A DNA stretch of 41,700 nt, from the UHGV virus genome UHGV-0188329. The stretch is one strand, 5' to 3'. Of this stretch, positions 3,401-40,568 are shown one piece after another (position 1 is the stretch's first letter; each line of letters begins with the position of its first letter). The DNA comes from a virus. The notes under the pieces are model-generated. The model saw only the letters and a list, made by a program, of their open reading frames with translations, did not search any database and had not been told where the DNA came from. Position numbers and translations under genes: made by a program.

Positions 3401-3708
3401 GCAGCTTCTCCATAAATATGTCTGCGTTTGAATATTGCGAAGGCATATTCAGCCTTAACTCTTTCGGTTATTGCATCCCAGAACCATTCAGCGGCTTTTT
3501 CCTGATAGTCACAGTCATCATCTTCCAGCCAGTCGATAGCGTCCTTAGTGTGTTCATCTGGCTTATATGAGCGAAGCATTTCGCTTATTGGGTCGCAACG
3601 TTTGCAGAGGCGATCAACTTCACTGTTGATTCGTTCGTAATCATCATCGGTAAAACTTGCGATGATTTGCGATATTTCACGCTTATCATTCAGAGTCAGA
3701 ATCATCAT
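3397..3708 (-). CDS. Hypothetical acidic early protein (103 aa)
   Basis: ORF whose stop overlaps the RecT-like start. Confidence 0.4.
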   Translation of the reverse strand: MMILTLNDKREISQIIASFTDDDYERINSEVDRLCKRCDPISEMLRSYKPDEHTKDAIDWLEDDDCDYQEKAAEWFWDAITERVKAEYAFAIFKRRHIYGEAA

Positions 3709-3793
3709 CTTTCTCCTGTTCTTTGTGCTGATTGAGCATTTCTTTCATCTGACGAATGAATTCTTCGTCTGACCAGTTATCTGTAAAACTCAT
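3686..3793 (-). CDS. Small acidic ORF (35 aa), possibly translationally coupled
   Basis: ATGA overlap with stop of upstream CIII-like gene; runs into next gene start; no clear SD. Confidence 0.2.
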   Translation of the reverse strand: MSFTDNWSDEEFIRQMKEMLNQHKEQEKDDDSDSE

Positions 3794-3960
3794 GGACGGC
3801 CTTGTTGTTTCAAAATATCCCAAAGCTTTTCGAGCAAACTTTTCATTCTTGGTTGTTTAAAGTCTGCTCCGGTTAAAATGTTTTTTCGTGAATGCTGCAC
3901 CGATAAAATCGGGTTGAAAGGGCGAACCGATGCCGCCCCTGCAATAGCGAACTGTTGCAT
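3790..3960 (-). CDS. cIII: CIII-like protein (56 aa), inhibitor of FtsH-type
   Basis: Internal ATG with AAGGAG SD 6 nt upstream; MQQFAIAG ... SLLEKLWDILKQQG resembles lambda CIII; the longer 91-aa ORF-track form would span a terminator hairpin. Confidence 0.5.
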   Translation of the reverse strand: MQQFAIAGAASVRPFNPILSVQHSRKNILTGADFKQPRMKSLLEKLWDILKQQGRP

Positions 3961-4023
3961 AGGATGCTCCTTCTGTTTGATTGCATAACGAAAACGCCTC
4001 GAATGAAGCGTTATTGGTATGCA

Positions 4024-4052
4024 TATAAAAAGGCCCTCACATTGGAGGGCAA
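4024..4052 (-). terminator. Intrinsic terminator in leftward early operon (tL-like)
   Basis: GCCCTC/GAGGGC stem with 6-nt loop followed by CUUUUUAUAU on the minus strand. Confidence 0.5.
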
Positions 4053-4178
4053 AGAAGATTTCCAATAATCAGAACAAGTCGGCTCCTGTTTAGTTACGAG
4101 CGACATTGCTCCGTGTATTCACTCGTTGGAATGAATACACAGTGCAGTGTTTATTCTGTTGCTTATTCCAAAGCAAAT

Positions 4179-4421
4179 TTAACCATCAACAAACTCTTCT
4201 GGTAATTTATCAACCAGTTGATGACTTATTATCAGCCATTTGCCATCCTTCGTTTCGTATGCATATTTCTGGTCTTTTATCATCATGTGTTCGGCTACTG
4301 CCCTAACTGCCTGATCGGTGACATCTTCTCTCTTTCCTACCCACATTCCTTTTTCAGTGTTTAATGTTCCTTGAAAAATACGACCGCTTAATGGGCTTGC
4401 GCCCATAGTTTTTACTCTCAT
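4179..4421 (-). CDS. Hypothetical protein immediately downstream of N (80 aa)
   Basis: Starts 11 nt after N stop; GAGAG about 9 nt upstream; occupies the position ral holds in lambda but is not Ral-like. Confidence 0.45.
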   Translation of the reverse strand: MRVKTMGASPLSGRIFQGTLNTEKGMWVGKREDVTDQAVRAVAEHMMIKDQKYAYETKDGKWLIISHQLVDKLPEEFVDG

Positions 4422-4431
4422 GTATCAGCTC

Positions 4432-4758
4432 TCAAATAAGTGGTTTGCTGCCTAATTTCATTTTCTGGCGACCAACACAAGTCACACCCATTTCACTGCG
4501 TGGCTTGCTGTACCATGTGCGCTGATTCTTGCGTTCAATACGTTGCAGGTTGCTTTCAATCTGTTCGTGGTATTCAGCCAGCACCGTAAGGTCTATCGGA
4601 TTCAGTGCGCTTTCTACTCGTGATTTCGGTTTGCGATTCAGCGAGAGAATAGGGCGGTTAACTGGTTTTGCGCTTACCCCAACCAACAGGGGATTTGCTG
4701 CTTTCCATTGAGCCTGTTTCTCTGCGCGACGTTCGCGGCGGCGTGTTTGTGCATCCAT
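4432..4758 (-). CDS. N: Antitermination protein N (lambda-type)
   Basis: Arg-rich N-terminus MDAQTRRRERRAEKQAQWKAANPLL matches lambda N; nutL immediately upstream. Confidence 0.85.
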   Translation of the reverse strand: MDAQTRRRERRAEKQAQWKAANPLLVGVSAKPVNRPILSLNRKPKSRVESALNPIDLTVLAEYHEQIESNLQRIERKNQRTWYSKPRSEMGVTCVGRQKMKLGSKPLI

Positions 4759-4956
4759 CTGGATTCTCCTGTCAGTTAGCTTTGGTGATTGGATGGCCGG
4801 CGCTGAACCCCGGCTTACTGGTTAGAGCGCCCGCACTACCAGTGACGCTGTCTTGAGGCGCAGATTGGTTACTGCTTGCCATGAGCGCTGTTTATACATT
4901 GGTCGAGCATCAGCCTGCTCATTCATCCAATCCCAAAGCCTTCTGCTTTGAATGCT

Positions 4957-4987
4957 GCCCTTCTTCAGGGCTTAATTTTTAAGAGCG
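4957..4987 (-). promoter_or_regulatory. nutL (boxA CGCTCTTAA plus boxB GCCCTGAAGAAGGGC)
   Basis: Exact lambda-type boxA and boxB hairpin read on the minus strand, between OL and N. Confidence 0.8.
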
Positions 4988-5030
4988 TCACCTTCATGGT
5001 GGTTAGTGCGTCCTGCTGATGGCTTAAAAT

Positions 5031-5112
5031 ATACCTACAGGTAAAACCGTTGTCTATACCTGCAGGTAAATAAAATTGGTGTGAGAGTTTACCTGTTTGA
5101 ATTTTCAGGTAA
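5031..5112. promoter_or_regulatory. Left operator/pL region: repeated TACCT-N2-AGGTA palindromes
   Basis: TACCTACAGGTA (5033-5044), TACCTGCAGGTA (5057-5068), plus TTTACCTG-N10-CAGGTAA (5088-5112); same motif recurs right of cI. Confidence 0.6.
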
Positions 5113-5132
5113 TTAATTTTTTGGATTGATAT

Positions 5133-5154
5133 AAAAAAGCCCGCTTTGCGGGCT
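5133..5154 (-). terminator. Intrinsic terminator ending the cI operon (tIMM-like)
   Basis: GCCCGC/GCGGGC stem with UUUG loop followed by U-run on minus strand, 12 nt after stop of the cI-coupled gene. Confidence 0.55.
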
Positions 5155-5165
5155 GAAAGGAGATG

Positions 5166-5480
5166 TCAGAAGCTATTTGGATTGCTTGGCCATTGCGGCA
5201 ATTTTGATTCTACCGGGGTGTGTTTGGGTTTGAGTCCGTTTAAGTAGTCAAGACGCTCAATGGCGCATTTATACATAGCAATCTGATCTGATGACATGTC
5301 GTCATATGACATGCCTTTGAACTTCTTAATTATCGTTTCTGCCTCATGTATAAGATTCTTCTTCCTCATGAGTTCAGCTGTATGCTTAGAGCTTACAGGA
5401 GATAACTTTGCCCATATGAAGCAGATGATTACAACAGCGACTACTATGCCGGGTATAAACATTTGCTGCTTTATCCTCAA
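5166..5480 (-). CDS. Small membrane protein co-transcribed with cI (rex-position cargo gene)
   Basis: ATGA overlap with cI stop; one N-terminal hydrophobic helix (FIPGIVVAVVIICFIWA); followed by own terminator; no recognised family. Confidence 0.5.
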   Translation of the reverse strand: MRIKQQMFIPGIVVAVVIICFIWAKLSPVSSKHTAELMRKKNLIHEAETIIKKFKGMSYDDMSSDQIAMYKCAIERLDYLNGLKPKHTPVESKLPQWPSNPNSF

Positions 5481-29264: not shown

Positions 29265-30329
29265 ATGTCTCTTAACTGGATGCGCCATTTTGAGCTGCAA
29301 CTGTTGGACCAGAACGGGCAGGGCGTTTCCCTGTCTGACTTTAAGGTCACGTTCCAGATCGAGTGGGCAGACACACGCTGGCCACGCGTGGCGAACGTGA
29401 AAATTTACAACCTTTCGACCGATACCACGAACAAGATACTTGGGCAGGAGTTTGCCAAAATTCGCATCATTGCCGGGTATGACGGTATAGTGCCGGATGT
29501 TGATGCGAGCCAGGTTGGTGTGTCCCGGGAGATTTCACCAGACCAGATAGGGCAGGTGAACGGTCAGAACTACGGCCTGATTTTTGACGGTGATATTCGC
29601 TTCACCGTCACCGGGAAGGACAACATTACGGATTCCTGGGTGTTGATTCAGGCCATTGGTGATCACGAAGCGTTCCTCTATGCGACCACCATCACCACGC
29701 TTGCCGCTGGCTATACCGTTGCGGATCTGCACCGGGCGACGATGCAGGATTTCAACGCGTTCGGCGTGACACAGGGCATTACCGGCGATTTTCCTGATAC
29801 CGTGTTTCCTCGTGGCCGCGCGATTTACTCATCCAGCCGCAACGTGATGGATAATATTGCTGCGCAGTGCAAAGCGACATGGCAACTGGTGGATGGTCAG
29901 GTCCAGATGGTGCCGGAGGATAAATATATTCACGAAGCCATTGTGTTGAATGCCAATACTGGCCTGATCGGTATGCCGCAACAGACAATGGGCGGCGGCG
30001 TAAACGTGCGGTGCCTGATAAACCCAAACATCCGCATTAATGGTCTTATCCAGCTCGATCAGGCTTCGGTGTACCGCGCCGCGCTCGGCAATAGCGAAAT
30101 CGCACAGTCGCCCGGTCGTATCACTGAAACGGAAGAGAACGGCAACCGCGCACTGACCGGCACAACGTCACAGGCTGCCAGCATTGCGACAGATGGCGTT
30201 TATATCGTCAAAGCTATCGACTATACTGGCGACACCAGAGGTCAGGCGTGGTACATGGATTTGATGTGTTTTGCGCGTGGCAGTCGTGATTTAGTTAATG
30301 CTGGTGCTATGCAAAAAACAAACTACTGA
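29265..30329 (+). CDS. Putative baseplate hub / late control D-like protein
   Basis: 354 aa in baseplate cluster. Confidence 0.45.
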   Translation: MSLNWMRHFELQLLDQNGQGVSLSDFKVTFQIEWADTRWPRVANVKIYNLSTDTTNKILGQEFAKIRIIAGYDGIVPDVDASQVGVSREISPDQIGQVNGQNYGLIFDGDIRFTVTGKDNITDSWVLIQAIGDHEAFLYATTITTLAAGYTVADLHRATMQDFNAFGVTQGITGDFPDTVFPRGRAIYSSSRNVMDNIAAQCKATWQLVDGQVQMVPEDKYIHEAIVLNANTGLIGMPQQTMGGGVNVRCLINPNIRINGLIQLDQASVYRAALGNSEIAQSPGRITETEENGNRALTGTTSQAASIATDGVYIVKAIDYTGDTRGQAWYMDLMCFARGSRDLVNAGAMQKTNY

Positions 30330-33505: not shown

Positions 33506-34182
33506 GCAAATACACCGAACTGATCACTAACTACCACGCTACCAAGCCACTCTTTTTTGACCATATAGACCTAAGCACTCGCCCGCTGATTGATGTGTCC
33601 AGGACTATGTCAGGGCTTGTAACAGCCTTCGATATCGATACGGCGGTCGGCGTGCAGCTCGACACGCTCGGGATCTGGATTGGGCGTAGTCGTATAGTCA
33701 GCCAGCCAATTAGCGGCGTTTATTTCAGCTGGGACACTGACGGCCTTGGATATGACCAGGGCGTCTGGCAGGGGCCGTATGACCCGGATTCGGGCTATAC
33801 GACGCTGAGCGATGACACCTACCGCATCATTCTGAAAGCGAAAATAGCGATCAACAACTGGGACGGCCGGAACGACTCGCTGCCGCCCATTCTTGACGAA
33901 GCGACGGCAGGCTCTGGCCTGAAGATGCAGATCGTCGACAATCAGGATATGACGATATCGGTTTGGGTATTTCCCGAGACTGACATTTCGGACGTGTCTC
34001 TCGAACTGATCGCCGCTATCAAGCAGGGCTATCTCACTGTTAAAGCTGCTGGCGTGTGGGCCGGTGATGTTGAAACGCCTTCGGTAGAAACACCGTCTGA
34101 AGGCACTAAGTTTTTTGGGTTTGATATGGATAACGAATACATCGGTGGGTTCGATGTGGGAGCATGGGGGACTTTACTCTAA
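33502..34182 (+). CDS. Putative baseplate/tail fibre attachment protein (gpI-like)
   Basis: 226 aa between J-like and tail fibre genes. Confidence 0.45.
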   Translation: MSKYTELITNYHATKPLFFDHIDLSTRPLIDVSRTMSGLVTAFDIDTAVGVQLDTLGIWIGRSRIVSQPISGVYFSWDTDGLGYDQGVWQGPYDPDSGYTTLSDDTYRIILKAKIAINNWDGRNDSLPPILDEATAGSGLKMQIVDNQDMTISVWVFPETDISDVSLELIAAIKQGYLTVKAAGVWAGDVETPSVETPSEGTKFFGFDMDNEYIGGFDVGAWGTLL

Positions 34183-35523: not shown

Positions 35524-35549
35524 TGCGCACGGATAGAATTCCGTGCGCA
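35524..35549. other. Perfect 10-bp stem-loop between convergent tfa and acyltransferase genes
   Basis: TGCGCACGGA-tagaat-TCCGTGCGCA; no adjacent U-tract. Confidence 0.4.
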
Positions 35550-35556
35550 GTGGAAA

Positions 35557-36600
35557 TTACCCTGTAAATATGCTAAGGAATGTTTTTTGAAATGATTTGT
35601 TTTTATTTTTAGCGTTAATTAATGCTACTATACTAACTTGCAGTTTTACCATTATTGTAGCAAGTGTGTAAGTAAGTACATAACTTATTAAATAATGACT
35701 ACCTATTTTTTGACACATTATGATAAATGGGATGTGCCATAAATAAATCCAAATGGAGTTTTGGGATATGAATGAAACAACCTGCCATAATCTTAAAACC
35801 TTAAGTAAAAGAACAGCTTTGTTTGAGAGCAGATAGACTACGAATATCATAAAGGTTGCATAGGACATGTAATATATCCCAGGTGGGTACTTGTCTGACT
35901 GAGTTGGATTAAAGGCACCCAAGGTAATAATGTAATATGCAGTCATGGCAGAAAATAATAATCCACAGATAATGGTTGGGGGTAATAATTCTTTATGATC
36001 AGTGCTTGCAATTTTATAACCAATGATGAAAGCAAGTGTATAAGATATAGAGTTTGATATGTATGTCCCCAAAAGTATATAAATGCTCAACTTGTCAATT
36101 CCATTATACAATGGAATTAACTGGCTATTAATTAATAAAAATGACGCGGATATTGTTAATATCGCTTTTAAATTAAGTGTGTATAGTTTTGGAGGAATGA
36201 AAGTGGCTATCACTGATATTATGAAAAAGAGTCTAATAACCCACACATAACCAAGCCCACTGGATAATGCGAATGATGTTATTATAATTGACTTATTGTA
36301 AGTAAAGTCTTTTATATTAAAAATAAACGAAATGATTTCATTTATTAAGAAAAATGCCGCGAAGAAAATCCAAGTTGGTAAAACTAAACGGCGAAATCGA
36401 GAATTAATATATTTTATTCTGTTGCTATGGCGATGTTCGGTTACACAAAAGGACATCCCCATAACCATAAACATTAAAGGAACATCAAAGTTTCGCAGTT
36501 GAGCTAGCCATAAAGGAGGCTGGACATGGGCTAGAATGATTAGAGAAAGCCCGAGAAATCTTAAAAAATCTATTTTATCAATACGCATGACTTCGTCCAT
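35557..36600 (-). CDS. Acyltransferase family 3 membrane protein (O-antigen acetylase Oac-like, lysogenic conversion candidate)
   Basis: 347 aa, multiple hydrophobic helices; N-terminal IDFLRFLGLSLIILAHV typical of acyltransferase-3; AT-rich; located between tail fibre genes and int. Confidence 0.7.
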   Translation of the reverse strand: MDEVMRIDKIDFLRFLGLSLIILAHVQPPLWLAQLRNFDVPLMFMVMGMSFCVTEHRHSNRIKYINSRFRRLVLPTWIFFAAFFLINEIISFIFNIKDFTYNKSIIITSFALSSGLGYVWVIRLFFIISVIATFIPPKLYTLNLKAILTISASFLLINSQLIPLYNGIDKLSIYILLGTYISNSISYTLAFIIGYKIASTDHKELLPPTIICGLLFSAMTAYYIITLGAFNPTQSDKYPPGIYYMSYATFMIFVVYLLSNKAVLLLKVLRLWQVVSFISQNSIWIYLWHIPFIIMCQKIGSHYLISYVLTYTLATIMVKLQVSIVALINAKNKNKSFQKTFLSIFTG

Positions 36601-40527: not shown

Positions 40528-40542
40528 GAAATAAATAAAAAA

Positions 40543-40568
40543 GGTGAGTCGCAAAACTCACCTTTTTT
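40543..40568 (+). terminator. Intrinsic terminator downstream of mlaA
   Basis: GGTGAGT/ACTCACC stem flanked by A-run upstream and TTTTTT downstream. Confidence 0.6.

Follow-up and report, generated by a model that had tools for sequence, protein, structure and literature searches.

The region between ral and ea10 of phage lambda encodes LPR1, an Hfq-dependent and Hfq-bound small RNA (sRNA) that has been renamed PreS (10.1101/2024.10.31.621285). PreS is about 88 nt long, is accompanied by a stronger, processed form of 68 nt, and ends at the terminator tL2a (10.1101/2024.10.31.621285). It is seen within 10 min of induction and is absent in lysogens, being confined to the lytic cycle, and in lambda it was shown to up-regulate dnaN and to support phage DNA replication (10.1101/2024.10.31.621285). 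As for the other end of this RNA, the lpr1 primers in Table S5 of the same preprint set it at GAGCAATGTCGC (GAGCAATG, GAGCAATGTCGCTCGTAACT), and the full lpr1 deletion starts right after ...TGAATACACG (10.1101/2024.10.31.621285); the 5' end of LPR1 is therefore one given by cloning primers and band sizes, not by mapped ends. The preprint (10.1101/2024.10.31.621285) makes no mention of a hairpin, of nuclease data or of 5'-end formation.

The same block of DNA carries other labels in the records of other phages. The record of Sf6 (NC_005344) calls it "bsq4; boundary sequence" and marks its end as "tL2A", and the record of phage 21 also marks this end as a terminator. Here we describe a copy of the block that follows a small gene of the DUF7446 family, together with the RNA hairpin at the 5' edge of PreS.

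Results

An early-left operon with a single gene between N and the PreS block

The window, by which we mean the whole stretch of 41,700 nucleotides analyzed here, comes from a lambdoid phage or prophage whose early-left (pL) operon is on the minus strand. Along pL, N is followed by a single cargo gene, a hairpin, PreS with its terminator tL2a, cIII and more early genes. ea10 is absent from this phage, and ral was found nowhere in the window. The features are as follows.

4432-4758, minus strand: antiterminator N of the lambda type, 108 codons, first gene of pL (Pfam N36, E 1.5e-26; PHROG 271)
4179-4421, minus strand: DUF7446 family gene, 80 aa, ATG start, cargo of the variable slot after N (PF24233; PHROG 1578)
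4141-4178, minus strand: junction of the cargo gene and the conserved block, with two GAATAA(G/A)CA motifs (lambda alignment; homology starts at ~4172)
4107-4146, minus strand: RNA hairpin with a perfect 9-bp core at 4113-4140 (folds, identity to lambda, covariation, covariance model)
4111 to ~4025, minus strand: copy of the sRNA PreS (LPR1), sharing 84 of 88 positions with the cloned lambda LPR1
4027-4050, minus strand: intrinsic terminator, equivalent of lambda tL2a and 3' end of PreS (terminator scan; Sf6 annotation)
3993-4012, minus strand: second hairpin, in the cIII leader, AACGCUUCAUUCGAGGCGUU then UUCGUUAU (terminator-like in the scan)
3790-3960, minus strand: cIII, the next gene after the PreS block (PHROG 550 "CIII", E 4e-22, residues 36-91 of ORF 3790-4065)

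The records of matching phages annotate the homologue of 4432-4758 as N. Between the stop codon of N (TGA, 4434-4432) and the ATG of the following gene (4421) there are 10 nt, the ORF beginning at the 11th base just as the initial annotation of this DNA had described, and a Shine-Dalgarno-like GAGAG lies 7 nt 5' of this ATG. The DUF7446 cassette, flanked by the end of N and the conserved block, has a GC content of 0.40, compared with 0.49 for the window. At the other end of the region, the 3993-4012 stem-loop lies between tL2a and the cIII ribosome-binding site, and it is kept in many relatives in which cIII directly follows PreS.

The repeat is part of the lambda block that encodes PreS

Positions 4023-4172 of the window correspond to lambda 33923-34072 at ~95% identity over ~150 bp, and the hairpin itself is 100% identical; the lambda counterpart sits between the stop of ral (34087) and the start of ea10 (33904). 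Judged from this alignment, the inverted repeat belongs to the ral-ea10 intergenic block of lambda and not to the DUF7446 gene. It had been placed "downstream" of the gene, which is right in the sense of transcription, but it is a part of the conserved block that starts at ~4172 rather than of the gene cassette.

The locus shares with lambda the hairpin, the architecture of the terminator, the position on pL and the seed (~4060-4079, TTGTTCTGATTATTGG), which is identical in the two phages. The terminator reads GCCCUC-CAAUGU-GAGGGC, then C and UUUUU (hairpin part 4050-4033, followed by the U5 run), its loop and U-tail differing from those of lambda by 4 nt (5 U in the window, 6 U in lambda). 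The neighbors are different: ral upstream and ea10 downstream in lambda, DUF7446 and cIII here. On sequence grounds PreS and tL2a are intact in this phage, and by analogy with lambda its PreS would be expected to bind Hfq and to up-regulate dnaN. Sf6 bsq4 is the same ~113-bp block, 97.6% identical to the window over 124 nt, and likewise lies between interchangeable early-left genes.

Of the 5,426 complete E. coli genomes that were searched, 2,236 have the PreS/tL2a block and 45 the whole 4060-4440 stretch; the block also occurs in hundreds of phages, among them Stx phages. Exact PreS matches were also obtained in assemblies of Pseudoxanthomonas, Shewanella, Bradyrhizobium, Neobacillus, Pseudomonas and others; these are low-coverage contigs, several of ~48.4-48.5 kb, and look like lambda DNA contamination rather than real prophages, adding no diversity. 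E. coli K-12 Rac was considered as a PreS carrier for which published RNase III data could be used and was rejected, because in the analogous early-left place, between sieB and kilR, this prophage has an unrelated annotated sRNA, KilS (L158 7406-7503), in which comparison by eye revealed no evident sequence similarity to PreS.

A 31-codon ORF (4011-4106, minus strand) has its ATG inside the 5' end of PreS (GAGCAATGTCG) and extends across both the seed and the terminator; in lambda the same start leads to a different C-terminus. We found no sign of its translation, and we attribute the conservation across this ORF to the sRNA.

The inverted repeat is predicted to form an RNA hairpin at the foot of PreS

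The perfect 9-bp inverted repeat GTGTATTCA-N10-TGAATACAC at 4113-4140, described from the start as a hairpin without a U-tract, was verified, and on the transcribed (minus) strand it is GGAGCAAUGUCGC, not a U-tract, that comes next. Repeats like this one are not unusual as such: perfect 9-bp repeats with loops of 3-12 nt occur at 5 loci of the window, compared with ~1.8 expected under a first-order Markov model, and the significance of this one rests on its fold and its conservation. Other perfect inverted repeats (at least 9 bp, short loops) are located at 29585-29610, 35524-35549, 36097-36118 and 40538-40567.

As RNA, the stem has 14 bp, CUGUGUAUUCAUUC-CAAC-GAGUGAAUACACGG, in which 4142-4129 pairs with 4124-4111, and past a single A/A mismatch three outer pairs (4146-4144 with 4109-4107) make it a 14+3-bp helix. 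The 5' end of PreS (GAGCAATG) is 2 nt beyond the 9-bp core and the helix ends within 1-2 nt of it, the last stem pair and the three outer pairs using the first nucleotides of PreS (G, then GCA). The 42-nt core of the hairpin has a predicted energy of -22.8 kcal/mol (z = -7.3), and its 166-nt context a z of -5.5. The antisense strand of the core folds more weakly (-17.2 vs -22.8 kcal/mol, and -12.7 vs -15.9 for the class 2 hairpin described below), because of G.U pairs in the transcript strand, of which the core has two.

RNase III sites need a duplex of about one helical turn or more, and the 14+3 bp provide it; the stem is AU-rich and, with 17 bp only, at the short end for RNase III substrates. 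The repeat does not qualify as an intrinsic terminator, being AU-rich, followed by GGAGCAAUG and uncalled by the terminator scan, which calls tL2a 60 nt 3' of it. A search of 3700-5200 with Rfam 15 (evalue mode) gave no real match, and PreS itself is not in Rfam 15; the match of the hairpin to mir-137 (24.6 bits, gathering score 56.7) was discarded as chance. Also discarded was a long-range helix in which the PreS seed pairs with the AGAAUAA upstream; it is predicted for junctions of the lambda type and for no others.

The sequence of the hairpin is replaced while its pairing is kept

Scanning viral contigs with the PreS seed yielded 120 loci; in nearly all of them the hairpin is the same, and six have a different hairpin in its place. 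The PreS homologue of P22-like phages is diverged (~83% identity over 53 nt), its similarity begins at the exact 5' end of PreS, and it is preceded by the second hairpin (phage L) or by a third (ST104, SE1 and NM-3). The three classes sit between the conserved GAAUAAGCAC(C) and (U)GAGCAAU(G/A)UCGCUCGUAAC.

Class 1: GUGUAUUCAUU...AGUGAAUACAC
Class 2: UAUAGCAGAUU-UACG-AGUCUGCUAUG
Class 3: UAAUGACCAUU-UYAAU-AGUGGUCAUUG

In every class all 11 pairs are standard ones, and their register relative to PreS is the same; 8 of these 11 positions differ from class to class, always on both sides. The pairs were counted directly, since class 2 was shifted by one column in the alignments made with MAFFT and with the covariance model. 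With the partly misregistered alignment, none of 500 shuffles reached the observed pairing and all slid controls were far lower. Matches of the covariance model to the hairpin scored 57-73 bits. The three classes may have arisen by whole-segment swaps, not by stepwise compensation, and so may represent few independent events. Class 2 was found with both lambda-type and P22-type sRNA bodies, indicating that the hairpin and the sRNA recombine, yet a hairpin is always kept. Taken together, the replaced sequences and the kept pairs argue for selection on an RNA structure and not on a sequence-specific DNA site. The initial annotation had made its reading depend on conservation of the repeat in relatives, and the repeat is indeed conserved, with the pairing kept where the sequence differs; of the two roles it had suggested, RNA processing site or protein-binding site, an RNA-level role of the processing type is the one favored, and the covariation speaks against a sequence-specific site in DNA.

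In the P22-like ST104, L, NM-3 and SE1 the PreS-like RNA is ~105 nt long and precedes gene 17 or cIII; its seed region (CUCGUUCUGGUUAAUCG) is altered and it ends in another terminator. Hybrids, with a lambda-type 5' half and a P22-type terminator, are present in two viral contigs.

Another possibility is that the repeat acts as DNA, either as a joint at which lambdoid genomes undergo homologous recombination, as the Sf6 label suggests, or as a palindromic site bound by a protein, with the RNA hairpin being incidental. The block does separate interchangeable modules, and the GAATAA(G/A)CA junction motifs recur, two copies of them being in the window. We nevertheless regard this possibility as very unlikely, because a joint or a binding site needs sequence identity, whereas here the sequence is replaced and the pairing kept; because the G.U pairs make the structure specific for the strand that is transcribed; and because the conservation of the block is already accounted for by the sRNA. 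Boundary sequence is a concept of recombination between DNAs, while the evidence here, the sRNA together with the covarying hairpin, points to a function at the RNA level.

It can also be considered that PreS has its own promoter overlapping the hairpin and that the repeat is an element of this promoter or its operator, given that the cloned 5' end of PreS is at the foot of the hairpin. A consensus scan, which could miss a weak promoter, detected no sigma-70-like site for PreS, and the best manual match was ~3/6 + 3/6. No -10-like sequence is common to the three hairpin classes, and the absence of PreS in lysogens and its presence no later than 10 min post-induction are what pL dependence predicts. 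Of all the explanations considered, we give this one the least credence. The dependence of PreS on pL and the lack of a promoter-like site ahead of it make processing the probable origin of its 5' end.

Many unrelated genes occupy the slot in front of the hairpin

Among ~120 viral contigs, at least 15 unrelated gene families were found directly 5' of the hairpin, with the following occupants.

Ral: 33 loci
156-aa protein: 19 loci
Nmad5: 10 loci
62-aa protein: 9 loci
149-aa protein: 8 loci
67-aa protein: 6 loci
52-aa protein: 6 loci
DUF7446, window included: 5 loci
Other occupants: fewer loci each

At least 14 of these families occur with one and the same hairpin sequence, and some relatives have additional genes that separate DUF7446 from the hairpin. 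There is thus no coupling of the two.

In the 62-, 67- and 52-aa families (L005, L014, L020 and relatives), the C-terminal Glu and the stop are read from the GAA TAA of the junction GAATAAGCAC, directly 5' of the hairpin, which means that the conserved joint supplies the last codon and the stop of all three. In the window, the junction (4141-4178) has two copies of the motif, GGAATAAGCAAC and AGAATAAACAC, and this doubling looks like a recombination scar.

In every case the cargo gene stops 34-90 nt before the hairpin, and this constant vicinity raises the possibility that the hairpin serves the upstream mRNA and not PreS, as a 3' stem-loop that is left when the polycistronic transcript is cleaved, protects against 3'-to-5' exonucleases and stabilizes the cargo message. 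The stem is stable and has no U-tract, and there are precedents for hairpins serving mRNAs in the early mRNAs of T7 and in lambda sib. In a variant of the same idea, the hairpin could target the cargo message for decay, as sib does for int. We think it unlikely that this is the role of the hairpin, which travels with PreS and not with the cargo, the same sequence following all those different families, and which has nucleotides of PreS in the base of its helix. A role for the mRNA is compatible with the hairpin being the 5' flank of PreS, and the two do not exclude each other.

The cargo gene of this phage belongs to the DUF7446 family

The ORF at 4179-4421 matches Pfam DUF7446 (PF24233) over its full length, with 100.3 bits against a cut-off of 24.1 (E 5.4e-29; residues 4-72 on profile positions 2-70 of 70), and PHROG 1578 with an E of 2e-39 (positions 1-77 of 78), so that it is a real 80-aa gene as proposed. 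It had been called unrecognized, which no longer holds, since it falls into a family with entries in both collections and identical copies are already named "DUF7446 family protein" in RefSeq. From these profile matches, DUF7446 / PHROG 1578 is a catalogued, uncharacterized phage family, of which the ORF is a genuine member. The protein has 61 close homologues, intact members of the family occur in several genera, and an exhaustive HMMER search of 1.84 billion representative proteins gave 343 clusters (50% identity), nearly all of stand-alone proteins of 70-90 aa. Rare fusions (to DUF551, to a zinc ribbon, and a probable VIT1 mis-call) were looked at and gave no clue to the function.

In an alignment of 32 sequences the N-terminal two-thirds are strongly conserved and the C-terminus is variable; M6, S9, G13, I15, G18, T19, T22, W27, D33-V34-T35, A38, V42 and E44-H45 are invariant, and the protein of the window has all 15 invariant columns. 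The codons of the invariant MGASPL form a palindrome at 4391-4406, ATGGGC-GCAA-GCCCAT, which is terminator-like in the scan on the plus strand, antisense to the gene, and is probably due to chance. The dN/dS among close relatives is noisy (0.3 to 1.2 on 9-23 differences), and positive selection was not read from it, the changes being mostly conservative (K/R, D/E, I/V).

A confident AlphaFold model (pLDDT 89.9) has three strands, a helix and two more strands, and DUF7446 as modeled is a small alpha/beta protein. Foldseek with this model against the PDB gave nothing significant (best E 0.18), nor did sequence and profile searches of the PDB, and the matches in BFVD were uncharacterized members of the DUF7446 family only. 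PADLOC and NCBIfam had no match to the protein. Our literature search found no paper naming DUF7446, and the peptide is absent from the supplements of an accessory-gene screen (10.1101/2023.04.06.535777).

The family recurs between an N-like antiterminator and recombination genes in prophages of Yersinia, Aeromonas, Salmonella and E. coli. In Yersinia prophages it lies between the repressor/N-like antiterminator and cIII with the recombinases, and one of these prophages (L130) has two DUF7446 paralogues, of 89 and 85 aa, in the same early-left operon. The leftward early operon of an Aeromonas prophage begins with a DUF7446 gene, and ERF and YqaJ come after it. In one Salmonella prophage-like lineage (L126-L128) the gene is overlapped by 4 nt by the following HD_4 (RelA/SpoT-type HD) gene, and the same operon has genes for YAcAr (a SLOG-family domain) and NADAR. 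P22-like Salmonella phages have homologues at 91% identity. Homologues of ~55% identity are present in ~270 phage records (hosts Salmonella, Klebsiella, Escherichia, Dickeya and others); the listed examples have large genomes of ~135-160 kb, and the one that was inspected, PhaxI, belongs to the Ackermannviridae. There, a DUF7446 cluster lies 3' of the major capsid gene, with a YAcAr gene two genes away; a YAcAr gene is thus near DUF7446 in both the Salmonella lineage and PhaxI. From these gene orders, DUF7446 is a recurrent accessory gene of early operons.

DUF7446 resembles Ral in its place in the operon only

Like lambda Ral (PF11058), the DUF7446 protein is encoded by an early gene after N and before the PreS block, and this likeness is limited to the place. 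The 80-aa ORF has no match to Pfam Ral, with which lambda Ral itself scores 162 bits, and hhalign of the two proteins gave a probability of 3%, so the original statement that the protein is not Ral-like stands, in a window that has no ral. The place directly after N is indeed the sieB/ral place of lambda, but DUF7446 is no general substitute for ral: in the P22-like phage SE1 it is directly 3' of ral, which means that the two genes are not alternatives.

Could DUF7446 nevertheless replace Ral in function, as an anti-restriction protein that relieves type I restriction? It directly follows N in a phage without ral, and ral often occupies this slot. We consider this improbable, because in addition to the lack of similarity and the coexistence with ral in SE1, the structural searches gave no match, the protein has no net charge (12 acidic vs 12 basic residues, pI 6.7) and is thus not a DNA mimic by charge, and the family is widespread in virulent Ackermannviridae.

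More broadly, the gene had been read as anti-defense from its immediate-early position. It is the position that supports this reading; no sequence or fold similarity was found to known anti-defense proteins (the DNA mimics Ocr and ArdA, and others with solved structures), nor the strongly acidic character of the mimics; the homology and structure searches against characterized proteins, which had been proposed as the check, were run and found no match. From its position and neighbors, we infer that DUF7446 is an early accessory protein directed at a host or defense component. It would be made early from the N-antiterminated pL transcript, would bind a component of the host or of a defense system, and would be dispensable for growth on permissive hosts. 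A role related to defense in particular is possible but rather doubtful, and the spread of the family over many Ackermannviridae, near the capsid gene, could point to a more general function than counter-defense. DUF7446 may be a new early counter-defense or host-takeover protein with an orphan fold.

Discussion

Most of what we describe is known biology, consisting of the PreS/tL2a/bsq4 block and the DUF7446 family, and we are highly confident of the identities of these parts. The reading that combines them, a DUF7446 accessory gene followed by a hairpin that forms the 5' flank of PreS on the pL transcript, seems to us somewhat probable. The step in which the hairpin is processed is held more tentatively, falling a little short of probable.

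In this mechanism, the hairpin would most likely define or protect the 5' end of PreS, and a cleavage of the RNase III type within the stem would release PreS; alternatively, the hairpin would be left on the upstream cargo mRNA as a stable 3' cap. Either way, the output of the sRNA would be independent of which cargo gene is upstream. RNase E prefers to cleave in AU-rich single-stranded stretches, and the 68-nt form of PreS would start near GUAA/CUAAAC, a stretch of this kind that would suit this enzyme.

A similar design is that of the intercistronic RNase III hairpins, such as the R1.1-type sites of T7, lambda sib and the sites of the N leader, which have in common with the hairpin a stable stem-loop without a U-tract on an early polycistronic transcript and a product end at the base of the stem. 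Compared with the RNase III sites of T7, the stem in the window is shorter (17 bp) and is without their typical internal loop, and cleavage is here only proposed.

It is conceivable, though we would not count on it, that the hairpin and the GAAUAA junction motif together constitute a portable "sRNA-release cassette", selected for its structure, which cuts PreS from the pL transcript. If this is true, the cassette would insulate PreS from the upstream gene, and lambdoid and P22-like phages would be able to swap their cargo, DUF7446 included, with the sRNA undisturbed.

What is new is modest. PreS is always preceded by a hairpin, of which the structure is conserved and the sequence is not, and this offers a concrete hypothesis of how the early operon could release the sRNA, a point that the preprint on PreS does not take up. 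The slot from N to the hairpin is a clean natural cargo site, used by at least 15 gene families. These families make up a list of candidates for early host-takeover or counter-defense functions, with DUF7446 among the more widespread ones.
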